Assembly (NCBI GenBank): GCA_949285735.1
Contig: CASEAQ010000021.1
Coordinates: forward strand, 5,737 to 69,736
Length of the DNA: 64,000 nucleotides
From: an uncultured Bacteroidales bacterium
Lineage (GTDB): Bacteria; Bacteroidota; Bacteroidia; Bacteroidales; Muribaculaceae
Direction: 5' to 3'
Shown here: positions 26,663 to 44,000 of the stretch, piece by piece
How positions within the stretch are numbered: position 1 is the stretch's first letter
Layout of the letters: every line of letters starts with the position of its first letter
The notes under the pieces: generated by a model
What the model saw: the letters and a program-made list of their open reading frames with translations, nothing else
Told to the model about the DNA's origin: nothing
The model's database searches: none
Position numbers and translations under genes: made by a program

Positions 26663-26695
26663 CGCCTCACATATTGCTTTGCATTAAAAACTCTT

Positions 26696-28363
26696 CTATT
26701 CTACCACATTCGGCTCTTCAAGCCCAAGCCCCTTCTTCTTGTCAACCACCTTCAGCACCAGTCCGAGTACCAAAGCAGCCACGCCCAGGCAAGCAAGCAT
26801 CACCAGCGGAGCGGTGTAGTCATACGACACGGCTGCCTCCTCGGCAGTAATAACGCCGTTGGCAAGGTCGGTGACAAGTTGCGGATTGGTCTGGTCGAGC
26901 ACCTTGCCTATGAGCAACGGGAACAGCCACAAACCAATGTTCTGAATCCAGAAAATCAACGCATAGGCACTACCTATAATCTTTGCGTCAACCAACTTAG
27001 GCACACTTGGCCACAACGAAGCTGGAACGAGCGAGAAACTTGCACCAAGCACGAGAATGGTGATATATGCCACAATCACGCCGCCCACGGCATTGTCGCT
27101 GAACATGGGCAACACGAACGCAAAGGTCAGGTGGCAGAAGATGAGCAGCAGCGACCCGAGCACGAGCATAGTGGCAGCCTTACCCTTGTGATCGACATAG
27201 TTGCCAAGTATAGGCGTGATGCCCACTGCAAGCAGCGGGAACACGGCAAACACCGTCTCGGCACTCTGCCTCATGTAGCCCATGTAACAGAACGTCACAA
27301 GTGCCACAACGGCTATGCCCAACAAGATATACCGCAAATTGGCTTTCTTGCAGAAGTTGCTGGCAAACGATGCGGCAGCCACCACGAGCATTATGCAATA
27401 TTGTATGACGGTAACCGTGTTGGTAGCCCAGAACGAATCGGCTGGCACTTCTTCAAACACGAGATTGCACTGGAGCATATTGACTGCATACTTCTGGAAC
27501 GGGAAAATTGCCGAATAATAAAGCACGCACAACAGTGCCACAAGCCAGAAACCGCCGCTCTTGAGTATCGAGCCGATGTCGCTTATCTTGAATGGGTCGT
27601 CCTTCTCCTCTGCCTCGCCCGTCTGCGCGTCGAGTTTCTTGTCCATGAAGAAGTAAACGATAAACATTATCAAGGCAATCATGAGCAGCACCACGCCGAA
27701 TGCCACCGAGCGCGACACGTCGATGTCGCCGCCGAGCCGTGCAAACATCGGCGAGAATATCATGCAAGTGGCAACACCCAACCGGGCAAGAGCCATTTCC
27801 GACCCCATCGCAAGTGCCATTTCGCGCCCCTTGAACCACTTCACGATTCCGCGCGAAACCGTGATGCCAGCCATCTCCACGCCACAACCGAATATCATGA
27901 AGCCCACTGCCGACAACTTGGCAGAAGCAGGCATACCCTTGTAGAACGGCGAAATGCCAAGTTCGTCGAAACCGGGAATGTAATTAAGATTGTCGGTAAA
28001 CCACTGTTCGAGTGCCGTTCCTTGGAACATCTCGGTCACTGCATACCAGTTGATGGTTGCTCCCACCAGCATCACAGCCCCCGACAGCACCGCCGTGAAG
28101 CGCACACCCATCTTGTCGAGAATTATCCCGGCAAAAATCAGGAAGAATACAAACACATTGAGGAAGGTCTCCGACCCCTGCATCGTGCCGAATGCAGTCG
28201 AGTCCCAGCCGCGGGTCGATTGCATCAAGTCCTTGATGGGCGACAAGATGTCCATGAAAATGTAGGAACAGAACATTGCGCCGGCAAGGAACAGCAGCAC
28301 CGTCCAGCGCACTGCCGCCGAATCTCTCAGCGTAGCAGGTTGATTGATTGTTGTTGATGTCAT
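26696..28363 (-). CDS. MFS transporter (555 aa, substrate unknown)
   Basis: About 12-14 TM helices and MFS motif A LDKMGVRFT after TM2. Confidence 0.85.
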   Translation of the reverse strand: MTSTTINQPATLRDSAAVRWTVLLFLAGAMFCSYIFMDILSPIKDLMQSTRGWDSTAFGTMQGSETFLNVFVFFLIFAGIILDKMGVRFTAVLSGAVMLVGATINWYAVTEMFQGTALEQWFTDNLNYIPGFDELGISPFYKGMPASAKLSAVGFMIFGCGVEMAGITVSRGIVKWFKGREMALAMGSEMALARLGVATCMIFSPMFARLGGDIDVSRSVAFGVVLLMIALIMFIVYFFMDKKLDAQTGEAEEKDDPFKISDIGSILKSGGFWLVALLCVLYYSAIFPFQKYAVNMLQCNLVFEEVPADSFWATNTVTVIQYCIMLVVAAASFASNFCKKANLRYILLGIAVVALVTFCYMGYMRQSAETVFAVFPLLAVGITPILGNYVDHKGKAATMLVLGSLLLIFCHLTFAFVLPMFSDNAVGGVIVAYITILVLGASFSLVPASLWPSVPKLVDAKIIGSAYALIFWIQNIGLWLFPLLIGKVLDQTNPQLVTDLANGVITAEEAAVSYDYTAPLVMLACLGVAALVLGLVLKVVDKKKGLGLEEPNVVE

Positions 28364-28413
28364 TTTGCTTATATGTTTTTTACATTATTCTCACCTTTTT
28401 CGCATTCAACTTG

Positions 28414-28421
28414 CAAAAGTA
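28414..28421 (-). promoter_or_regulatory. -7 promoter box TACTTTTG (MFS gene)
   Basis: Exact TAnnTTTG match on the minus strand, 51 nt upstream of the ATG at 28363. Confidence 0.5.
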
Positions 28422-28504
28422 ACCAATTATTCCCCAACCACGATACAATTTGCCCCAAAATTGCAAAAATTCCCACACATACTTCTCAAATCATAATGCA
28501 GGCA

Positions 28505-29152
28505 TCACTTCAGCCCCATTATGCTTTGCACCAATAAATACACTCTCGTTCCTACCGTCTGCGGCCATCGGTCGGCAGGACGCGTGTCCAATGCTTTGGC
28601 GCGGTCTATCGCAACTGCCACGTTTTTAATGATAGCCATTGCATCGTAATCTGCTTCATGATAATGCCCCGTCAGTTCTTTCATTTTTCTTTTCAACCAA
28701 GTTTCGCCATGCCTTGATGTCTTTTTGTTTTCGGCAAGCAATTTCATCTGCTCGGGAGAATAAGATGCCACATCTTCAAAATGCAACAGCAGCCAGAGTT
28801 CAAAACATGGATTGCTTAAACAAAAATACAAATTATCGCCTTTTGCACAATATTGAGCAACCGACGACAACATCTTGTCGCCCCATCTGTCTTTGTCAAC
28901 GACAACCCACAGTTGGTCATCATCCTCGATATTGTATTCCGATACAAATTCCTGAATCTGCGCTTTCACACTTTCCGGGCTTGAACTGTCGGAATCTCGG
29001 TGCAAGACCTCGACATGCACATCCGACGCACACAACGACACTTTCATCGCTTCAAAATATATATTCTCGGTGCTTCGTCCTTCTGCCGCTATAACAACGA
29101 GCCGAGCCGACCGTGTACCTTCAAGCCGTATGAAATCTTTTCGTTTCCTCAT
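28505..29152 (-). CDS. RloB-like (Toprim-like) protein, AbiLii-like partner of the upstream ATPase
   Basis: Motifs AAEGRSTENIYF (N-terminal acidic Toprim-type glutamate), VVVDKDRW (DxD) and SNPCFELWLLLHF, which I recognise as RloB family. It starts 4 nt after the ATPase stop. The region is AT-rich. Confidence 0.75.
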   Translation of the reverse strand: MRKRKDFIRLEGTRSARLVVIAAEGRSTENIYFEAMKVSLCASDVHVEVLHRDSDSSSPESVKAQIQEFVSEYNIEDDDQLWVVVDKDRWGDKMLSSVAQYCAKGDNLYFCLSNPCFELWLLLHFEDVASYSPEQMKLLAENKKTSRHGETWLKRKMKELTGHYHEADYDAMAIIKNVAVAIDRAKALDTRPADRWPQTVGTRVYLLVQSIMGLK

Positions 29153-29156
29153 GGCT

Positions 29157-30430
29157 TCACCATTTTAAATCTTTTATCGGAGCAAAAAAGGGAATTGCGC
29201 CATATCGCCCTTGCAAATACCCCTTGCGAATATCTTCACGTGGCTTAAATTCCGCAAGCGAATACAAATGAGACGCTCCATTTCGGTCTTTCTCGACAAA
29301 CCACACTTCGTCGGCTCGAATCAATTCCAAATTAAGCAAGTTAGACTCATGAGTGGTGAATACCAACTGACAATCACGCCCGTCTGACAAACGACTAAAA
29401 TAATATTCCAACAACTTTTGCGACAACATAGGGTGCATACTACGGTCTATTTCATCAATCAAATAAACCATTTCGTTGTTCAGCCCCAAATCTATCAACA
29501 TGGGTATGAAATCAAGCAAGCGAAGGGAGCCGTCCGACTCTTCGTTCATGTCAAATGACACTTCGCCACCATCGTCATTCCTATGTATGGCATTTTGCTT
29601 GTATATTGTCGTTATACCGCTATCATTCGTTTCAAAAAAGTAAATTGTGGTTGGCGAAGAAACCAAAAAATTCTTATTAGGCTCAGACCCCGCCAAAAAC
29701 TCATCGACCAAGTCCTTGGGCAAATCGAGATTTTCTTTTTGTATTTTGGTTCTTCTTATATCAACTATACCTGTGTTGAAATATCCCAACAAAGACTTTG
29801 TCGCCATAGCAAATTCCTTGTCGCGCTCTATGCGGATAGATATGCCGCTATATCGAGAGTCGGGAAATATTATTTTCAGGTTCTCTTTCAGCCAATTATG
29901 CGCTATGTTGATGCAATCAAGCCCCTTGCCGTTTCGCTTTATATATTCCGACAGTGCCTGTTCTCATCATCGCCATCTATACTGCCGAAAGTAAATTCAT
30001 TGCCGACCGCTGTTGTCCTACGGGAAAAAATTTCCTTGTCGGCTCTACTATTGATTTCATAAAGCCATTCTTCGGCAATACCTTTTATGTTAAATTCCAC
30101 CCCGTAGGCAAAATACCGCTTTCCTGCTTTAAATTCTATCTCTACTTTCGACGGCTTGGTATTTGGCTCAACCAGCTTAAAGGGTTCAATATCTTTTCGC
30201 GGAACGCTGCCCAAAGCAATTTTCTGTATTATCGCAACCGACTTTATTATGTTGCTTTTCCCCGAGGCGTTGGCACCATAAATTATTCCAGCCTTTAGGA
30301 CAGAAATGTCATCGCGCTTTTCAGCCCGGCTCACTTGCTCGTTGTGCCTGTCGCTCTTGCCGGCAACAAAACTAATTTCTGTTTCATCTTTGAATGAAAA
30401 AAGATTTTCTATCGTAACCCTTAAAATCAT
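29157..30430 (-). pseudogene. ABC-type AAA ATPase (AAA_21/AAA_15-like, AbiLi-like), split by one frameshift
   Basis: The N-terminal ORF 29939..30430 carries Walker A GANASGKSN. The C-terminal frame is open from 29963 down to 29157 and carries Walker B VYLIDEIDRSMHP and VFTTHES (track ORF 29157..29807). The two frames overlap only in 29942..29963. Confidence 0.8.
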
Positions 30431-30461
30431 CGCTTCGACTTATTATATCAACATTCCACCA

Positions 30462-30469
30462 CAAATATA
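30462..30469 (-). promoter_or_regulatory. -7 promoter box TATATTTG (ATPase/RloB module)
   Basis: Exact TAnnTTTG match on the minus strand, 32 nt upstream of the ATG at 30430. Confidence 0.6.
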
Positions 30470-30492
30470 GAAACTAAATGCGCATTTACACA

Positions 30493-30530
30493 AAAAATTG
30501 TCGAATTTGTGCAACAACTCGACAATTTTT
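30493..30530. promoter_or_regulatory. perfect 12-bp inverted repeat (candidate operator or hairpin) upstream of the ATPase promoter
   Basis: AAAAATTGTCGA (30493-30504) and TCGACAATTTTT (30519-30530) are separated by 14 nt. The spacer begins a 12-nt direct repeat, ATTTGTGCAACA, at 30505-30516 and 30548-30559. Confidence 0.6.
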
Positions 30531-30584
30531 GTATGGAGGGAATAGATATTTGTGCAACACCAGGGGGGTGACGGCTGCGCGCCG

Positions 30585-31262
30585 TCAGTATTCTCGGGTG
30601 CCGAAGATGGTGGTGCCGATGCGCACCATTGTCGAACCTTCGGCAACGGCTATGCGGTAATCGTCGCTCATGCCCATGCTCACGGTGTCGAAACTCGAGC
30701 TGGCGGCAAAATGAGATGATTTAAGCTCGTCGAACGTGTGGCGAATGGCACGAAACTCGCGGGCGATTTCAGCTTCGTCGTCGGTGTTGGTTGCCATTCC
30801 CATCACTCCGCGCACATTCACGTTTGCAAGGCTGCCGAGTACTCCGCTATCGACAAGTCCGCGGCACTCGTCGATGGTGAACCCATACTTTGTCGCCTCC
30901 TGCGCCACGTGCAGCTGCAACAGCACATCGACCGTGCGCCCTGCGCGGCGCGCCTCGTCATCGACGCAGCGCAACAGCCGCTCGCTGTCGATGCTATGCA
31001 CAAGCGCAACGTAAGGCACAATCTGCCGCACCTTGTTGCTCTGCAAGTGCCCGATAAAGTGCCACTGCACATCGCCCGGCATGGCAGTGTGCTTCGGTCC
31101 AATCTCTTGTGCACGGCTCTCGCCGAAAATGCGCTGCCCGGCATCGTATGCCGCCATCAGTGCCTCCACAGGGTGGAACTTAGAAACAGCAACGAGCTTC
31201 ACCCCAGTGGGAAGCTCGCTGTGCAATTTCTGTATTTCTTCTTTTATATGTTCGATGTCCAT
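30585..31262 (-). CDS. yggS: YggS family pyridoxal-phosphate homeostasis protein
   Basis: Single TIM-barrel alanine-racemase-N-like domain with VAVSKF (PLP lysine), HFIGHLQSNK and GMSDDY. Confidence 0.92.
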   Translation of the reverse strand: MDIEHIKEEIQKLHSELPTGVKLVAVSKFHPVEALMAAYDAGQRIFGESRAQEIGPKHTAMPGDVQWHFIGHLQSNKVRQIVPYVALVHSIDSERLLRCVDDEARRAGRTVDVLLQLHVAQEATKYGFTIDECRGLVDSGVLGSLANVNVRGVMGMATNTDDEAEIAREFRAIRHTFDELKSSHFAASSSFDTVSMGMSDDYRIAVAEGSTMVRIGTTIFGTREY

Positions 31263-31276
31263 CGCTCGTCTTCCCT

Positions 31277-31741
31277 TTATTCGATAGGTTTCTCGGCTGC
31301 CGCCTTCTTGCCGCTCAAGTCGGCAGGGAACACGTCCATCAACGGCGTTTCCACAATCGAGGCAATTTCAAAGTCGGCAAGCGTGCCCTTCATGTTTTCC
31401 ATGAAGTTGTCGAGAGCCATCTTGAACTCGCTTGCCTGCACGAGCATAAACGACGCTGTCTTCTTCTCCACGGCAGTCTTCTCGTCGATGGTGATAAAGT
31501 TGGTCTTCACCTTATACCACTTGTCGCCCGTAGCGTCGTAGAACACGTCGCTTATCTTCTCCCTCTTTACAGCCGACACGGTAAACTCGCCCGAGATGTA
31601 GGGCGACATTTCCTCGGTGATGCGAGCCTCGGCTTCGGTAAACGACAACGCGTCAACCAAGTAGTTCTCGGTCACAGTCTTCTGCAACCCGGTTTCCAAA
31701 ATCTTGCTATATCTAATCTTACATTCAAACCAATTAGCCAT
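31277..31741 (-). CDS. DUF4494 domain-containing protein
   Basis: N-terminus MANWFECKIRYSKILETGLQKTVTENYLVDALSFTEAEARI is recognised as the Bacteroidota DUF4494 family. Confidence 0.7.
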   Translation of the reverse strand: MANWFECKIRYSKILETGLQKTVTENYLVDALSFTEAEARITEEMSPYISGEFTVSAVKREKISDVFYDATGDKWYKVKTNFITIDEKTAVEKKTASFMLVQASEFKMALDNFMENMKGTLADFEIASIVETPLMDVFPADLSGKKAAAEKPIE

Positions 31742-31780
31742 AAATCTGCTTTTAATTTATAATTAATCATTGAGTGGCTG

Positions 31781-31788
31781 CAAAATTA
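31781..31788 (-). promoter_or_regulatory. -7 promoter box TAATTTTG (DUF4494-yggS)
   Basis: Exact TAnnTTTG match (TAATTTTGCAGCC) on the minus strand, 40 nt upstream of the ATG at 31741. Confidence 0.6.
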
Positions 31789-31849
31789 CAATAAATATGC
31801 GTAATAACCTCGCAAAATTCCCAAATTCATGCCGTGCCACTCAAGCAGC

Positions 31850-35937: not shown

Positions 35938-38391
35938 ATGGTACGCAAGACAGTGGCGACGTTGGCAATCGCAATGTTATCTTATTATTCCTCGATAGAA
36001 GCCGGCATCATTACAGGAAGGGTTATCGACTCCTCGACCGACAAGCCGATGGAATTTGTGAACGTGACAGTGAGCAACAAGCAAAGTGGCAAGGAGCTGC
36101 CAGTTGGCACCATGTCGGGAATCGACGGCTCGTTCCAGCTGAAAAATGTACCCGAGGGAAGCTACCAAGTGAAACTGTCATACGTCGGCTACAAAGCAGC
36201 TTCGGTCAATGCCGAATTGCACTCGTCCAACCAGTCGCTCGACCTCAATGTGGTGGAACTGTACGAAAACACCCACATACTCGACGAGGTGGAGGTGATA
36301 GGCATGAAGTCGCAAATGCGCTTCGAGCTCGACCGAAAAGTGTTCAACGTTGACCAAAACGTGGCAGCCGCAGGTGCGTCGGCAAGCGAAATACTCGAAA
36401 CAATACCGTCGGTCGAAGTTGACGACGACGGCGAAATATCTCTCCGCGGCAACTCGTCGGTGACAATTTGGATTAACGGCCGCCCGTCGGGGCTCACCGC
36501 CGACAACCAAGGGCAGATACTCGAACAGTTGCCTGCCGAAACCATCGAAAAGGTGGAAGTGATAACCAACCCCTCGGCAAAATATAGCCCCGAAGGAACT
36601 TCGGGCATCATAAACATCGTGCTGAAGAAAAACCGCCAGGCTGGCTACTTTGGCGGAGCGCAGGTGGGAGCCAACACCCAAGGCGGATACAATGCCGGCG
36701 GCAACATCAATGTGAACGTGGGAAAGTGGGATGCATACGCCAACATCGGCTTGCGCAGCAGCCACAGGGAAGGGTATAACAATTCATACCGAACATACAA
36801 CGACGGCACCTTCCTCAACTCGCTTGCCGATACCGAGCGGCGCAACACGTCGCTCTTCTTCCGCGCCGGAACAACCTACCACCTGACCGATGCCGATGCA
36901 CTGTCGCTCGGCGGATTCGGAATGGTGGGCGGAGGCTGGAACCGCTCGCGCACCAACTACGAAAGCTCCGTGCCCGGCAGCTTCTCGTCGGGGTTCAGCA
37001 ATAGCGACAGCGACCGTGACGGACGCGGCGGCAACGTCTCTCTCGACTATTCCCACGAATTTGGCGAGGGACACGACTTGATGGCTTCGGTGTCGTTCAA
37101 CGCATGGCGTATGCCCAACAACACCACATATCAACGGCAATATGAATATACCGACTCGCTCGACACCTACTGGCAATACCAAGAGAGCAACGTGAAAGTA
37201 AACAACTGGGAATTCCAACTCGACTACACCAACCAGATAAACGACAAATTCCGCATCGAGGCTGGATATAAAGGCACTCTGAGCCATGAAGACAGCCCAA
37301 TGACCACTTGGACGGGCCCCACCGAAACCGATATGCCGCTCGACGAGGACTTATACAACCGCTTCATCTACGACCAAAATATACAAGCCTTGTATGCGAC
37401 ATTCGGAGGCAGAATCAGCGATTTCAGCTTCTCGGCAGGATTGCGTGGCGAATATTGGCACAACGAAGCCAAATCGCTGGCGTATGGCGACCTGGAGAAC
37501 GAGATAAAGCCGTTCACTACCGACAAGTTTGCATTGTTCCCCAGCCTATTCCTGTCGTACTCGCTACCCAAGGACAACGAGTTGCAAATCAACTACACCC
37601 GGCGCATACGCCGCCCGTGGGGTGGACAATTGAATTCTTTTGTCAACATCAGCGACCCGACAAATATCTCCTACGGCAACCCCGAGTTGCAACCGCAGTA
37701 TTCCAATGCGTTTGAGCTCAATTATATAAAGAATTGGACCAACCACGTGATTTCGGTATCGGGATACTACCGTTCTACCGACGACGTGATGCAACGCATC
37801 AGCTTCATGCGCGACGGCGTGATGAACACCACCAACGAAAACGTGTCGCAATCGCTTGAGACAGGTGCCGAATTTGTTATTAAAAACAACTTGTTCAAGC
37901 GTCTCGACCTCACCACCACCGTCAACTTGTATTACAACAAGCTCGACGGCTTCAGCTTCCTGCCCGAGGGGCTCACGACGCCCGTCATCGGCGAAGAAGA
38001 GAGCGACTTCTCGTGGAACTTCAACATAATGGCATCGATAAGGCTGCCTTGGGACTTGAACCTGCAAATGACAGGGCGTTACCACTCCCGCCAGATATTG
38101 GCACAAGGGTCGCGCGAACCGCGCTACCGCATTGATGGCGGCATCAAGAAGTCGCTCGGCGACTGGTCGTTCTCGGTAAACGTGCGCGACCTGCTCGATT
38201 CCCGCAAATGGAACCAAATGACCTACGGCTCAGACTTCGTGCAAGAAGCCGAACGTCGCGGCGGAGGCAGACGCGTACAATTCTCGGTATCCTATAGCTT
38301 TGGCAACGCCAAAGCCCGCAAGCCCGACAAACGCCCCAGTGGCAACGGTGAAGGCGGAAGCATGGACGGCGGCTACGACATGGACTACTAA
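35938..38391 (+). CDS. TonB-dependent receptor-like outer-membrane beta-barrel protein with CarboxypepD_reg-like N-terminal domain
   Basis: Signal peptide, GRVIDSSTDKPMEFVNVTV carboxypeptidase-regulatory-like domain, plug (IEKVEVITNPSAKYSPEG), a long beta-barrel and a Gly-rich C-terminal tail. There is no adjacent SusD gene. Confidence 0.85.
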   Translation: MVRKTVATLAIAMLSYYSSIEAGIITGRVIDSSTDKPMEFVNVTVSNKQSGKELPVGTMSGIDGSFQLKNVPEGSYQVKLSYVGYKAASVNAELHSSNQSLDLNVVELYENTHILDEVEVIGMKSQMRFELDRKVFNVDQNVAAAGASASEILETIPSVEVDDDGEISLRGNSSVTIWINGRPSGLTADNQGQILEQLPAETIEKVEVITNPSAKYSPEGTSGIINIVLKKNRQAGYFGGAQVGANTQGGYNAGGNINVNVGKWDAYANIGLRSSHREGYNNSYRTYNDGTFLNSLADTERRNTSLFFRAGTTYHLTDADALSLGGFGMVGGGWNRSRTNYESSVPGSFSSGFSNSDSDRDGRGGNVSLDYSHEFGEGHDLMASVSFNAWRMPNNTTYQRQYEYTDSLDTYWQYQESNVKVNNWEFQLDYTNQINDKFRIEAGYKGTLSHEDSPMTTWTGPTETDMPLDEDLYNRFIYDQNIQALYATFGGRISDFSFSAGLRGEYWHNEAKSLAYGDLENEIKPFTTDKFALFPSLFLSYSLPKDNELQINYTRRIRRPWGGQLNSFVNISDPTNISYGNPELQPQYSNAFELNYIKNWTNHVISVSGYYRSTDDVMQRISFMRDGVMNTTNENVSQSLETGAEFVIKNNLFKRLDLTTTVNLYYNKLDGFSFLPEGLTTPVIGEEESDFSWNFNIMASIRLPWDLNLQMTGRYHSRQILAQGSREPRYRIDGGIKKSLGDWSFSVNVRDLLDSRKWNQMTYGSDFVQEAERRGGGRRVQFSVSYSFGNAKARKPDKRPSGNGEGGSMDGGYDMDY

Positions 38392-38414
38392 TTCCCCACT
38401 ACTACTAAATTATA

Positions 38415-38444
38415 AGGACACTCGGCTCGTGTGTCCTTTTTTTA
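38415..38444 (+). terminator. rho-independent terminator of the receptor gene
   Basis: Stem AGGACAC (38415-38421) / GTGTCCT (38431-38437) followed by T7. Confidence 0.75.
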
Positions 38445-38462
38445 TTCCACCGCGAGAGCCAC

Positions 38463-38495
38463 AAAAAAGGACTGTGCCAATGTTTGACACAGTCC
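38463..38495 (-). terminator. rho-independent terminator of the T9SS cargo gene
   Basis: Stem GGACTGTG (38469-38476) / CACAGTCC (38488-38495), followed on the minus strand by TTTTTT. Confidence 0.75.
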
Positions 38496-38522
38496 CCGTT
38501 AATTGATAATCGTTACTAACGA

Positions 38523-41500
38523 TTATTTAACAATGAAGCGCATTGCTTGAGTGCCGTCGGCAGTCTGTACCTTGGCAACGTAGATGCCGTCGGCAAGGCC
38601 AGTAACGTTATAGCGCAGTTCGCTGCTGCCCACGGTTGCCGAGCCTACCATCGCGCCCGATGCCGAGTAGATTGCCACGCTCTCAATCTCGCTGCCTGTG
38701 GAGCTTATGACGAGTGTTTCGCTCACTGGATTGGGATAGAGGCTGAGTGACTTGTCGATAGCTATGGTGCCCACACCCGAAGCAGGCTTTGACACTATGA
38801 TATCATCAACCATGAAGATGAATGCGTCTTCCGACACGCAGTGTATTGCGACATAGACGTTTTGCCCTGCATATTCGCTGAGGTCAACATCGACTTGCGT
38901 CCATTCGCCGGCTGGTGCGCTTCCCGATGCTACGACAGTGAAACTTGCCGGGTCGTTGTCGGTGGTAGATACGCACACTTCATACTGTTCAAGTCCATAA
39001 TCGCCAGTGTATGACTGTACTTGCATTTCGAGTGCCGCACCATCTTCGGGCATGAGCAGCAGCGGCGAGATGAGCCAGTCGTCATTGAGCAAGCTCGTGG
39101 CTGCAAACACGGCACCGAAGCGTTGTCCGCTATAAGGTGCAGTTCCTGCCGATTCATAAAGCGACGGTGTGGTGTTGTAGGGGTTGAATGCCATGAAACC
39201 TAATGTGTAGTCTTCTGGCATCGGGAATGTGATACCATTGAACCCATAAACTTCCGACTGGTCGCCATCGACCGAAATCCATGCCGGGTTGAAGTTGTCG
39301 ATGGCAAAGTCTGCGCAACCTTCAAAGTCCATAGTGTATGGGTCGAGCGGTTCGGCACTTGTTACGGTCTTTTCCACGCTGTTGTTGTCGGGGTTCTCGT
39401 CACCTTCGAGCGTGGCTGTTGCCACGATGGTATAGTCGCCCGGAGTAGCCATGTCGGCTGTGAACGTGTAGCTTGCCGAGGCATACCCTTCGAGCGTTAC
39501 AGCCTGTGCCTCAAGTGCCGTGCCATTGACTGTCACTTCAATAGTACCGTTGGCAGTTTCGCTACCATTGTTGGTCACTTGCACTACGATTGGCTGGTTG
39601 CTTGCAAATATGCCTTCACCGTCGGGCGACAGAATGCCGTCCACCATCAGGTCGTGTGCGATAGGCTCACCCTCGCCGAATATGGCGCGGATTGCCGGGG
39701 TGCCAAGGTTGGCAGACGACTGGTCGATGACATAGTCGCCATTGATGAGGTAGAGCGAGCCAGGTGTCACCATATCGGTAACGAGGCAGTATCCCGAGCA
39801 GCCGACGCACAGCAAGTAATCGCCTGGTTCTATTACACGTGGACTTATAGCATAGTCGATTTGCCCGTTTTCGGTACCTTGGTTTACTTGCACAGCAAGA
39901 ACCTGTTCACCAAGCATATAAACACCTTCCTCAACTACTGCGGTCGGATCGAACTTGTAGAGCGACAACTCTATGTCCTGCCCATCGGCAGCCCCCCAAC
40001 CGATAGAGATTCCAGTGAGGACGTCCTCGGTTGCCAAGTGGATTTGTGTGCCGCCCACATAGGCACCGCCGCCAACGCCGATACAGTAATCCTCGATATA
40101 CATGCCGTCTGTGGTGTGGTCATAGGCGAGCACCTCCTCGGTGGCTGTAATTGTCGCTGTTACAGTGTTATTGCCAGCATTGCCGTCTTCACCGCCAGTG
40201 ACTTCAACCTCAAATTCCACATCGGCTGCAGTTCCTGCACTTGCACTCGAGAGAGCAAATTCGATAGGCACTGTTGTCGTTGAGCCTGATGCGATTGATG
40301 GAACCGTGGCTGTGGCAATAGTGCTGCCGTCAACGATTACCGACAATGTGCCGCCATAGCTGCCGGCTCCGCGGTTGGCTACTACCACTGTAGCCTGTGC
40401 CGACTGGGAAGTTGGAAGCATCGTCGGACAACCGCTTATGCTTGTGATTGCAAGGTCACAGCCAGTTATCTCGCTGATGCTGATACTTGAAATGAAGAAT
40501 GAGCCTGCGGGTTCATCTTGAGCGAATGCAAATTGGTAAACACCCGATTGCTCGCAATTGAATGTGGCTTCGCGGTCAACGAATGCGTCGCCTGTGTAGT
40601 CGTCGATGGCTTCGTCGATGACGCTCATTTCCTCACCTGCGATACCGCACGACAGGGTGAAACTTTCGGTATATGTGAAAAATCCCAAGAAGTCGTAACC
40701 TGCCATATAGTTGTATTCTATGCGGTAGCTCTTGCCTGCCTCAAGGTTGACACCTTGTGAGTAGAGCGGTGTATTCCCGATGCAAGCTATCGCCTGGTAG
40801 TCGGATACATATTCCCAGCTGCCATTGCTGCTCCAGGCTTCAGGTTGTTCACCCGCAGAGAAGTCGGTAACAAATGGCACATCGGTAGTGCCGAAGTGGG
40901 TGGTCGAAGCCGATAGCGAATTATTGTCAAAAGCTTCTTCCTCGCGGCCGTCTCCAGCAGGAACAACATCGCTCACGGTGACTGTGACGGTATATACACC
41001 TGCTGCCGACATATCGGCTGGCATATCGAGTTCGACTATTGCAATATTGCCTTGTGTCAACGTTGCATCAACGGTTTGCAATGGGCTTGTCTGCTGCGAC
41101 CCGTTGCATTCCACGCTCATGGACAGCGAGTAGGACGACACGTCGCAAGTACCATAGTTGCCTATTGTCACGCTCACCGTTTCGCTGGAAGTCAACGACG
41201 GGCTTGGTGCTGGCAATGTTACTTGCATCACGCCGAGGTCTGCCTGCCCGATAAATTTTCCACTGTTAATCTCGATTTTATCGATAAATGCGTAGTATTG
41301 GTCGGGTTCCGAGCATCCGTGTATAGCAAAATAGTAGTCGCCGCCCTCTGGAATGGTGAGAGCTATTTGTTCGCTATATATGTAGCCACCTTGGTAGTCG
41401 ATATATGATTCAATGGTAGTCATGCTGTTGACATCGGGCGAGGTGCCATACAAGATTTCGATGCTTTCGTAGTATGAAGTCGATGCGCCGCCGAAGTCGA

Positions 41501-42023
41501 TAGCCACATAAGCATCACCGCTTGCAAGGGTAATCGGATTGGCTGTGACGAGGTAGTCATCCGACTGCAAGGTCGAGTTATACATCAGAATAGCAAAACC
41601 ATTGTCGCCGTCATATGTCCATGTAGTACCATCGCTGTTGGCATCGACAGTTGTCCAGTTGTTGATGAACGACTCTTCGGTATCGAAATCGCACACAAAC
41701 GGTGCAGCCACTGGCGATGGGTCAGCGAGTGGTTGCGTTGCAGCCGTTTTCACTCTCGTGGTGGTTTCTGCTTTTTTACGCACTTGCACGGCCTGACGCA
41801 TCCTTGGGTCGGCAACCTGCATCGTCTTGCGTTCGCTCAACTTCTGCGCCGAGGCATTATCCTCACATAATTGAAGGTTGACCTGTTGGCTGACTTTCCT
41901 TTGCAGCATCTGCGTTGTAGGCACTTCTGCAGTTGGTATCGCTTGCCTGGCAACTCGCTGGAAAGCATAGCTTCCTGCCACCACCAATGTAGCACACGAC
42001 AAATAAGTAATTAGTCTTTTCAT
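38523..42023 (-). CDS. large T9SS-secreted surface protein (about 1166 aa): choice-of-anchor-J/cleaved-adhesin-like and CARDB-like modules + type A T9SS C-terminal sorting domain
   Basis: Signal peptide MKRLITYLSCATLVVAGSYA. Three modules begin F.(C/T/M)DF... with W..VD..DG / NDDWLISP motifs, and three CARDB-like modules end in FDNNS, AGNNT and PDNNS. The C-terminus LSLYPNPVSETLVI...GIYVAKVQT......RFIVK is a T9SS CTD. The track start at 42179 lies upstream of the promoter box, so ATG 42023 is preferred. Confidence 0.85.
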   Translation of the reverse strand: MKRLITYLSCATLVVAGSYAFQRVARQAIPTAEVPTTQMLQRKVSQQVNLQLCEDNASAQKLSERKTMQVADPRMRQAVQVRKKAETTTRVKTAATQPLADPSPVAAPFVCDFDTEESFINNWTTVDANSDGTTWTYDGDNGFAILMYNSTLQSDDYLVTANPITLASGDAYVAIDFGGASTSYYESIEILYGTSPDVNSMTTIESYIDYQGGYIYSEQIALTIPEGGDYYFAIHGCSEPDQYYAFIDKIEINSGKFIGQADLGVMQVTLPAPSPSLTSSETVSVTIGNYGTCDVSSYSLSMSVECNGSQQTSPLQTVDATLTQGNIAIVELDMPADMSAAGVYTVTVTVSDVVPAGDGREEEAFDNNSLSASTTHFGTTDVPFVTDFSAGEQPEAWSSNGSWEYVSDYQAIACIGNTPLYSQGVNLEAGKSYRIEYNYMAGYDFLGFFTYTESFTLSCGIAGEEMSVIDEAIDDYTGDAFVDREATFNCEQSGVYQFAFAQDEPAGSFFISSISISEITGCDLAITSISGCPTMLPTSQSAQATVVVANRGAGSYGGTLSVIVDGSTIATATVPSIASGSTTTVPIEFALSSASAGTAADVEFEVEVTGGEDGNAGNNTVTATITATEEVLAYDHTTDGMYIEDYCIGVGGGAYVGGTQIHLATEDVLTGISIGWGAADGQDIELSLYKFDPTAVVEEGVYMLGEQVLAVQVNQGTENGQIDYAISPRVIEPGDYLLCVGCSGYCLVTDMVTPGSLYLINGDYVIDQSSANLGTPAIRAIFGEGEPIAHDLMVDGILSPDGEGIFASNQPIVVQVTNNGSETANGTIEVTVNGTALEAQAVTLEGYASASYTFTADMATPGDYTIVATATLEGDENPDNNSVEKTVTSAEPLDPYTMDFEGCADFAIDNFNPAWISVDGDQSEVYGFNGITFPMPEDYTLGFMAFNPYNTTPSLYESAGTAPYSGQRFGAVFAATSLLNDDWLISPLLLMPEDGAALEMQVQSYTGDYGLEQYEVCVSTTDNDPASFTVVASGSAPAGEWTQVDVDLSEYAGQNVYVAIHCVSEDAFIFMVDDIIVSKPASGVGTIAIDKSLSLYPNPVSETLVISSTGSEIESVAIYSASGAMVGSATVGSSELRYNVTGLADGIYVAKVQTADGTQAMRFIVK

Positions 42024-42063
42024 AATAGATAATTTTTTTAAATTAATAATCAGACTTCGATTG

Positions 42064-42071
42064 CAAATATA
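42064..42071 (-). promoter_or_regulatory. -7 promoter box TATATTTG (T9SS cargo gene)
   Basis: Exact TAnnTTTG match on the minus strand, 41 nt upstream of the ATG at 42023. Confidence 0.6.
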
Positions 42072-42407
42072 TACATAAAAACGGATTATGAAATCATTTT
42101 GCCGTAATTTTTTTGAAAATATTGAAATTTTGCACAATTTACATAAAATCACAATTACACACCGCACATATTCCGCCACGCTGTCACTTGAATTTTACAC
42201 AAATAACACTCATTATAGCGCAATATTGAAAGCACATTTCCCAACAAAGTTGAACACCTCCGCAATCTTTCATTATATGTTTATTGAAAATACTACGAGC
42301 AAAGCCACAATGGACTGCCAATGCCGCATACCGCAAGTCGCAGGCATTGCTAAACCGCTTGACTCCAAACTAAGTGACCAATATTGGATTAAAAGGCTTA
42401 TACAATC

Positions 42408-42449
42408 ATAGCACAAGGGAACGGACGCAATGCCGTTCCCTTGTGCTAT
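42408..42449 (-). terminator. terminator hairpin of proS
   Basis: Perfect 17-bp stem ATAGCACAAGGGAACGG (42408-42424) / CCGTTCCCTTGTGCTAT (42433-42449) with an 8-nt loop, 43 nt downstream of the proS stop. Confidence 0.7.
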
Positions 42450-42491
42450 ATGGTCGGCTACTATGTGCAGCCGTTGTTCCCTGAATATAGG

Positions 42492-43976
42492 TCAATAATT
42501 GCGGGCGAAAATCACGCGCTGTGCCGACGGGCGGCCAGTCACCATGCACTTGCCTGGAGTCGTCTTGTCGCCATCGAACGGAATGCAGCGTATCGTGGCT
42601 TTGGTTTCTTCCTTAACCTTCTCTTCGGTCTCGGGAGTGCCATCCCAGTGGGCAAGGATAAATCCGCCTTGCTCGATTTTCTCCTTAAACTCGTCGTAAG
42701 TGTCAACTGTAATCGTTTTCGATTCACGCAACGCCAATGCCTTTTGGTATATGTTCGCCTGTATCTCCTCAAGCAACTTTTGCACGCGTTCCTCGATACC
42801 CTCGATAGGCTCGGTGTGCTTTTCGAGCGTGTCGCGGCGCATCACCTCGACAGTGCCGTTTTCGAGGTCGCGGGCGCCGAGTGCCAGACGCACAGGCACA
42901 CCCTTCAACTCATAGTCGGCAAACTTGAAGCCCGGACGCTTGTTGTCGGCATTGTCATACTTCACGCTTATGCCCATGTTGCGCAGCTTCTCCACTATCG
43001 GAGCCACCTTGCGGCTTATTTCATCAAGCTGCTCGGCACTCTTGTAGATAGGCACTATCACCACTTGTATCGGGGCGAGGTGCGGCGGAAGCACGAGGCC
43101 GTTGTCATCGGAGTGGGTCATAATCAACGCACCCATCAAGCGGGTTGACACGCCCCACGATGTTGCCCAAACATATTCGAGTTCGTTGTTCTTGTTGATG
43201 AACTTAACATCAAATGCCTTTGCAAAGTTCTGCCCCAGAAAGTGTGACGTGCCCGACTGCAATGCCTTGCCATCTTGCATCATTGCCTCGATGGTGTAGG
43301 TTTCGAGCGCGCCAGCAAAACGTTCGTTTGCCGACTTCACACCCTTTATCACCGGAACAGCCATATAGCGTTCGGCAAAATCGGCATACACGTTAAGCAT
43401 TCTCACTGCCTCTTCCATCGCTTCCTCCTTGGTGGCGTGGGCTGTGTGCCCCTCCTGCCACAAGAATTCAGCAGTACGCAAAAACATGCGTGTACGCATT
43501 TCCCAGCGCAGCACGTTTGCCCATTGATTGCACAAGATGGGCAGGTCGCGATACGACTTAATCCAGTTGCGGTAGGTATTCCATATAATAGTTTCAGATG
43601 TCGGGCGTATTATCAACTCCTCTTCAAGGCGGGCATCGGGGTCAACCACCACGCCACGCCCCTCGGGGTCGTTCTTCAAGCGGTAGTGTGTAACCACTGC
43701 ACACTCCTTTGCAAAACCTTCCACGTGGTCGGCTTCCTTGCAAAGAAACGACTTGGGAATGAGCAACGGGAAATAGGCATTCACGTGCCCGGTTTCCTTG
43801 AACATACGGTCGAGCTCGCGCTGCATCTTTTCCCATATCGCATACCCGTAGGGCTTTATCACCATGCACCCCCTCACAGCCGATTGCTCGGCGAGGTCGG
43901 CTTTTACAACCAATTCATTATACCATTGCGAATAATTCTCCGATCGCTTGGTTAAATCTTTCAGCTCCTTTGCCAT
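42492..43976 (-). CDS. proS: proline--tRNA ligase (archaeal/eukaryote-like type)
   Basis: Class II aaRS motifs, an anticodon-binding domain and the ProRS C-terminal zinc-type domain ending ...VIFARNY. The [12 protein letters not shown] start at 43976 is preferred because the TAACTTTG box lies at 44001-44008. Confidence 0.95.
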
Positions 43977-44000
43977 TACTGTTTTTATATTATTTTTTGG

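Follow-up and report, generated by a model that had tools for sequence, protein, structure and literature searches.

Our analysis of a 64,000-nt stretch of an uncultured Bacteroidales genome assembly (contig CASEAQ010000021.1; the whole stretch is called the window below) revealed what is very probably a chromosomal AbiL module that was acquired once and vertically kept, that has a broken ATPase gene in this assembly and that would work, by analogy, in a PARIS/OLD-like manner. Judged from its sequence, the locus is an ordinary AbiL-family phage-defence pair of a bird-gut Bacteroidales, composed of genes for an ATP-binding cassette (ABC)-type ATPase (AbiLi) and an RloB nuclease (AbiLii) and located among housekeeping genes. 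Both genes lie on the minus strand, with the ATPase first, between a gene for a major facilitator superfamily (MFS) transporter and yggS. The features of the locus are as follows.

28505..29152, minus strand: AbiLii/RloB-family gene, 215 aa, intact, encoding a predicted Toprim-like nuclease effector (Pfam, PADLOC)
29157..29954, minus strand: 3' part of AbiLi with Walker B and the H-loop region, in a different frame from the 5' part (PADLOC, AAA_21)
29939..30430, minus strand: 5' part of AbiLi, an open reading frame (ORF) of 163 aa that ends at a premature TAA at 29939-29941 (PADLOC, AAA_21)
29954..29955, no strand: site within AbiLi at which 46 bp are deleted (L001 and L082-L086 compared by blastn and alignment)
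30469..30462, minus strand: putative Bacteroidetes-type -7 promoter box TATATTTG, located as a motif 31 nt before the AbiLi ATG
30493..30530, minus strand: hairpin with a T-run after it, located past the yggS stop and ahead of the module promoter (inverted repeat; RNA fold)
28472..28504, no strand: zone that contains the downstream border of the module (homology limits of L003 and L169)
26696..28363, minus strand: flanking MFS transporter gene, outside the module (PF07690, E 1e-19)
30585..31262, minus strand: flanking yggS gene, outside the module (TIGR00044, E 4e-51)

A first-pass annotation of this DNA had described two minus-strand genes 4 nt apart between the MFS gene and yggS, and both the gene order and the spacer between the ATPase stop and the RloB start (TGA-AGCC-ATG) were confirmed; in relatives the two genes overlap by up to 4 nt or are separated by up to 6 nt. 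The motifs that it had named, including Walker A, Walker B, VFTTHES and VVVDKDRW, were likewise all located. Walker A (GANASGKSN) is found at residue 52 of the 163-aa AbiLi ORF, and VYLIDEIDRSMHP and VFTTHES are carried by the 3' frame, which is open at 29157..29963 on the minus strand and has its first ATG at 29807. The 3' part is collinear with positions 940-1737 of L001, a public contig with an identical RloB protein, the same yggS-module-MFS arrangement and an intact AbiLi allele of 439 aa. In the RloB protein (215 aa), AAEGRSTENIYF is located at residue 22, VVVDKDRW at 83 and SNPCFELWLLLHF at 113.

Profile searches bore out the assignment to AbiLi and AbiLii that had been proposed. The two AbiLi fragments match the PADLOC AbiLi model separately (E 1.1e-30 for the 5' and 4.4e-47 for the 3' fragment) and cover positions 3-121 and 220-304 of the AAA_21 profile, the latter being its C-terminal end. 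The intact protein from L001 reaches E 6.6e-81 with the same PADLOC model, followed by AriA as the next best (E 4.8e-27), and the ATPase is of the AAA_21/AAA_15 type (Pfam AAA_21, E 5e-26). The RloB protein matches the full Pfam RloB model (PF13707, E 1.1e-32) above the gathering score as well as PADLOC AbiLii (E 8e-23), and no model for AriB, DUF4435 or Toprim_OLD was matched by it with E <= 1 (PADLOC) or E <= 10 (Pfam).

The core topology of RloB is predicted to be Toprim-like. In the AlphaFold2 model, which has a mean predicted local distance difference test (pLDDT) score of 88.6, a beta-alpha-beta-alpha-beta-alpha-beta core is formed by strands 17-23, 45-50, 80-86 and 108-114 with helices between them. 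This agrees with a Toprim-type pattern of an alternating core, a Glu after strand 1 and a DxD after strand 3, and the residues E24, D86 and D88 do not vary among 41 homologues. Hence the family name in the earlier claim of an RloB (Toprim-like) protein stood, by Pfam and PADLOC, and its Toprim fold went unconfirmed in our own fold and profile searches: hhalign gave no significant profile similarity of RloB to P2 Old, and phmmer against the PDB gave no significant link to Toprim or OLD proteins. Among viral structures, the sole significant fold match was BFVD entry A0A8S5LTA7 from Myoviridae sp. ct25F5 (E 2.7e-8, template modelling score 0.61), which is named 'RloB-like protein'; therefore, RloB modules are carried by phages too.

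The break in the ATPase gene had been read as a frameshift. We found instead an out-of-frame deletion of 46 bp at 29954|29955, which leads to the premature stop at 29939; a one-base frameshift was rejected, the gap being 46 bp. At this junction, intact alleles hold the minus-strand sequence GTTGGTCAAGTTTATTAGCCAAAGTACACCAGTCACCGACAGTTTC. L001 and five contigs with an identical DUF4494 neighbour (L082-L086) have the 46 bp, and so do contigs from each of the ten public runs with coverage of this site (X1, X2, X3, X8, X7, X9, X10, X11, X14 and X16), where 46 letters, or 51 with 5 skipped, lie between the two sides of the window junction. Words spanning the deletion junction were found in no indexed public run, although Logan contigs drop rare variants and a real strain may thus be absent from them. 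Because six contigs and ten runs are all intact and the junction words are nowhere indexed, the deletion is private to the window assembly. An AbiL system calls for both genes to be intact; the window copy has one broken gene, and the ATPase is intact in all other copies. Since AbiLi carries this private out-of-frame deletion, the system is probably not functional, and it is most likely inactive in the window assembly, with a truncated ATPase and an intact RloB gene.

We consider it likely that the deletion is real. It is somewhat unlikely, by comparison, that the module of the organism is intact and working and that the deletion arose as an artefact of assembly or binning or belongs to a rare variant in a sub-population, which the assembler happened to follow. 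For such an artefact speaks, besides the missing junction words, run X1, which holds 0.99 of the sampled words of window positions 36000-44000 and is probably the source sample of the window: as the best-matching run, it shows solely the intact allele at the site, in a contig of depth 11. Moreover, the window has private single-nucleotide polymorphisms (SNPs), four of them within 24 bp of yggS (30835-30858) and one in AbiLi (29711), that are absent from every covering run and contig, X1 included; the cluster hints at a distinct strain or at a mixed-strain consensus. However, De Bruijn-graph assemblers make contigs from k-mers that are really present in the reads, no microhomology exists at the junction ('both' = 0) from which a deletion could have been created spuriously, and the omission of rare variants from Logan contigs means that a real strain could be missed. 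No identical protein is on record for the exact YggS and MFS proteins of the window, in the case of YggS because of the private SNPs in its gene.

The intact allele contains a perfect 7-bp hairpin, CCGACAG-TTTC-CTGTCGG (L001:925-947), whose surviving arm corresponds to window positions 29948-29954, and the right end of the deletion coincides exactly with the border of loop and 3' arm. A hairpin-associated replication error may lie behind the deletion. Simple slippage between two ACAG repeats was rejected, as 45 bp would be lost that way and the resulting junction would be another one. An 11-nt inverted match between 28985-28995 and 29945-29955 was dropped, since about 0.75 such matches are expected by chance, and an apparently truncated RloB in L082 and L083 proved to be a different start choice (a 180-aa call) on unbroken DNA.

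Intact alleles appear to be maintained. RloB of the window and of L001 differ at 11 nucleotides, all synonymous, and at no amino acid, and conspecific alleles of RloB show 5-11 nucleotide and 0-2 amino-acid differences. For AbiLi, the ratio of non-synonymous to synonymous substitution rates (dN/dS) is about 0.06-0.18 among conspecific alleles. The few amino-acid changes and low dN/dS indicate that both genes are under purifying selection in the population. Furthermore, the intact module is covered by contigs from X9, a metatranscriptome run, which would point to expression, although carry-over of DNA is possible.

How the intact module would act can be drawn by analogy. AbiLi, an ABC/SMC-like (structural maintenance of chromosomes) AAA_21 ATPase of 439 aa, and AbiLii, which starts 4 nt further on, are probably translationally coupled. 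As in PARIS and OLD, an ATPase oligomer would bind RloB and either hold or license it; a phage-derived cue could then alter the state of the ATPase, and the freed or activated RloB would cut nucleic acid, which is tRNA in PARIS and P2 Old and might be tRNA or DNA here, and thereby abort the infection. In such a scheme AbiLi would sense infection and control RloB, and the private 46-bp deletion would truncate the sensor/regulator half and leave the nuclease gene intact.

Homologous pairs are found in several contexts. A search with the ATPase returned 7,399 proteins at E <= 1e-5, the best 120 of which are 65-100% identical and include proteins named from several Bacteroidales genera. Homologues at 73-77% identity are found beside QatABCD in an integrase/primase element and in type I restriction-modification (R-M) operons. 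The former, at L172:953-12698 (also L173 and L175), comprises a tyrosine integrase, two HTH_17 proteins, a BT4734-like protein, a PriCT_2/DUF3987 primase, AbiLi, RloB and KAP-NTPase/QatB/QatC/QatD. L174 has the same backbone with leucine-rich repeat and unknown genes in place of the Qat genes; therefore, the cargo slot of this Bacteroidales integrative element is variable. In the R-M operons, represented by L180:311-10008 (also L181 and L182), four extra genes occur between hsdM and hsdR, one for a DUF4325 protein before hsdS and three after it, which encode an unannotated protein of 216 aa (with no Pfam hit on record), AbiLi and RloB. In L176 (Butyricimonas), the ATPase homologue adjoins a RhuM gene, and plasmid homologues in PLSDB are about 30% identical and come from many phyla, one of them being annotated as abiLI.

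It is improbable that the pair is mainly a toxin-antitoxin or addiction module, or an R-M accessory of the RloA/RloB kind, which would persist through post-segregational stability and not through defence. The homologues at 77% identity between hsdS and hsdR (L180-L182) are in the classic Rlo context, as in the RloA/RloB genes at the type I R-M loci of Campylobacter (Miller et al. 2005, as cited in PMC13064643 and PMC10440598), and the NetFlax study reported AAA ATPases as antitoxins of TOPRIM_OLD/RloB toxins (PMC10440598). The window copy, however, has no R-M gene near it, and a lost ATPase beside an intact supposed toxin is the opposite of what addiction predicts. Moreover, it was through an anti-phage phenotype that lactococcal AbiL was defined (Deng et al. 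1999, as cited in PMC13064643).

The foreign character of the module is visible in its base composition. The spot G+C values given in the first-pass annotation were reproduced exactly (0.533 at 28201, 0.300 at 28801 and 0.367 at 29401), and the module as a whole has a G+C content of 0.430 compared to 0.534 and 0.547 in its flanks and 0.503 +/- 0.024 in the window. It is the lowest-G+C stretch of 1.9 kb in the 64 kb, and all sub-windows below 0.44 overlap it. At third codon positions (GC3), the module genes have values of 0.43-0.48 versus 0.57-0.74 in neighbouring genes.

The module was present in every conspecific contig and run examined, and it is linked to yggS in three species-level lineages. 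The order DUF4494-yggS-AbiLi-RloB is found in L082-L086 and in L178/L179, the latter continuing with MFS-serC-serA, and L178 shows continuous DNA homology of 78% to window positions 31815..26691. In the third lineage, L169/L170, the order is yggS-AbiLi-RloB-rpsO-uvrB. Identities across these lineages are 82-85% for AbiLi, 74-80% for RloB and 81-82% for YggS; by this measure the divergence of the module is in the range of that of YggS, with RloB lower than YggS. In the tree, the three ATPases linked to yggS group together as one clade (support 100/100), apart from all other homologues (<= 77% identity). Across the three lineages, GC3 is 0.28-0.48 in the modules versus 0.52-0.74 in the adjacent flanking genes. 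Orthologous modules at this one site nevertheless differ in GC3 (0.28-0.33 in L178:2728-4697 versus 0.43-0.48 in window 28505-30430) with flanks that are alike, those of L178 being at 0.61-0.71; this gap could be due to lineage-specific amelioration or to allele replacement by recombination.

More distant relatives lack the module next to yggS or the MFS gene. Of 80 Bacteroidales genome loci with an MFS protein at 80-96% identity, not one has RloB, AbiLi or yggS within 6 kb, and neither the module nor the MFS gene occurs in 80 metagenome loci of YggS (YggS <= 68% identity). In L002 and L003 the MFS identity is 95-96%, and neither has the module beside the MFS gene. L003 is the closest MFS locus with matching downstream synteny and is without the module; its homology to the window ends at 28471, 34 nt from the RloB stop, and that of L169, which has the module and another downstream neighbour, ends at 28515. 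As the module-less MFS loci have no yggS and the yggS loci have no MFS gene, the module sits at a synteny breakpoint. The simplest reading is a single acquisition downstream of yggS in the common ancestor, followed by vertical descent, at this breakpoint. A small clade of Bacteroidales from bird/chicken guts would have received the module through an ancestor, and it would have been inherited vertically since then with its foreign, AT-rich composition retained.

Accordingly, the earlier proposal of a horizontally acquired island stood as far as an accessory and foreign nature is concerned, given the GC3 values, the absence from 160 loci of relatives and the homologues in mobile contexts, and did not stand as far as a recent insertion is concerned, given that three lineages share the module in a 100/100 clade. 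The same annotation had named conservation at this position in all relatives, with native composition, as the mark of a core gene pair; we found conservation at the site in near relatives, a composition that is not native, and absence in distant relatives. It is very improbable that the pair is a core, native one with some housekeeping role and no horizontal origin, which would fit its presence at the same site in every conspecific contig and run and in two further lineages as well as an ATPase divergence close to that of YggS, but not a composition far from the host in all three lineages, the 160 module-less loci of more distant relatives, or nearest non-syntenic homologues in mobile and defence contexts of other families.

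Several points weigh against our reading of the locus as a once-acquired, vertically kept AbiL module that is broken in this assembly. The deletion is known solely from the window assembly, and a minor variant or an assembly artefact is possible. When the RloB model was compared to the PDB with Foldseek, nothing matched at E <= 1e-3; the best match was unrelated (E 1.6e-3), and entries of topoisomerase I, which has a Toprim domain, reached only E 0.02-0.06. No empty site was found and none of the contigs from the 12 runs examined bypasses the module, so that the acquisition event is not reconstructed. In line with what had been noted before, we detected no tRNA in 20-40 kb around the module and neither an integrase nor a flanking direct repeat at it. 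An anti-phage function of AbiL in Bacteroidales is suggested by homology only. Finally, if AbiLi were an antitoxin as in PARIS, its loss beside an intact RloB should be harmful, which is uneasy with a viable genome. Three options could account for this: the deletion may not be real, RloB may depend on upstream translation for its expression, or RloB may need the ATPase in order to act.

The last option leads to a more tentative and on balance doubtful proposal, namely that AbiLi is an obligatory activator or scaffold of RloB and not a restraining antitoxin, and that RloB is harmless alone, if the deletion is real. AbiL would then be mechanistically distinct from PARIS (AriA) and from the AAA antitoxins of NetFlax and nearer to the ATPase-Toprim cooperation of OLD and Gabija. 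A strain with a real deletion would represent a natural AbiLi knock-out with an unmutated, conserved RloB gene behind an intact promoter, and such a possible ATPase-null, nuclease-intact genotype bears on whether the toxin-antitoxin logic of PARIS applies to AbiL, a question raised in PMC13064643.

The region upstream of the module adds several observations. The -7 box of its own that had been attributed to the module was found (TATATTTG), and its equivalent in the intergenic regions of L178 and L169 is TATCTTTG. The hairpin between yggS and the module in the window has a 19-bp stem and a folding energy of -19.2 kcal/mol. Strong hairpins are also present between yggS and the module promoter in L178 (2599-2727) and L169 (2462-2535), and the sequences are unrelated among the three lineages. 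The window hairpin at 30493-30530 probably acts as the terminator of yggS and is less likely to be a conserved operator, although an operator role is possible. On the other side of yggS, a DUF4494-yggS pair is kept in 68 of 80 Bacteroidales metagenome loci (L089-L168), usually with a spacing of tens of bases, which suggests that the uncharacterised DUF4494 protein is linked to YggS functionally or by operon.

Overall, the locus provides a case of a defence module kept at one chromosomal site through speciation with a foreign composition, and it cautions that a low G+C content alone is no sign of recent transfer. AbiL is already known to PADLOC and DefenseFinder, and NCBI names such proteins 'RloB family protein'; the significance of the locus beyond annotation is little.

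Among known systems, AbiL is filed together with PARIS as an ABC-ATPase plus TOPRIM system (PMC11464382, PMC13064643), which supports the likeness to the ATPase/Toprim split of PARIS and OLD that had been noted earlier. In PARIS, an AriA hexamer sequesters AriB until a trigger frees AriB, which cleaves tRNA-Lys (PMC11464382). The window pair shares with PARIS the split of an ABC ATPase from a nuclease of the Toprim type, and AbiLi also matches the AriA model; in contrast, its RloB matches no AriB, DUF4435 or Toprim_OLD model, and for the ATPase the AbiLi model beats AriA (6.6e-81 versus 4.8e-27). Class 1 OLD proteins, including P2 Old, are single polypeptides, whereas the window has two separate ORFs. 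P2 Old is a tRNase, and no profile similarity between it and the window RloB was detectable. With RloA/RloB of Campylobacter, the window shares the Pfam RloB family and the pairing of an ATPase with RloB, and in relatives at 77% identity the pair is flanked by hsdS and hsdR; the window copy itself is without R-M genes nearby and has MFS and yggS as neighbours. The closest counterpart by profile is AbiL of the Lactococcus lactis plasmid pND861, which has the same two-gene operon and order and whose AbiLi and AbiLii models are the best matches of the window proteins. Unlike this plasmid-borne system, the window copy is chromosomal, belongs to a Bacteroidales genome, stands solitary among housekeeping genes and has a truncated ATPase.

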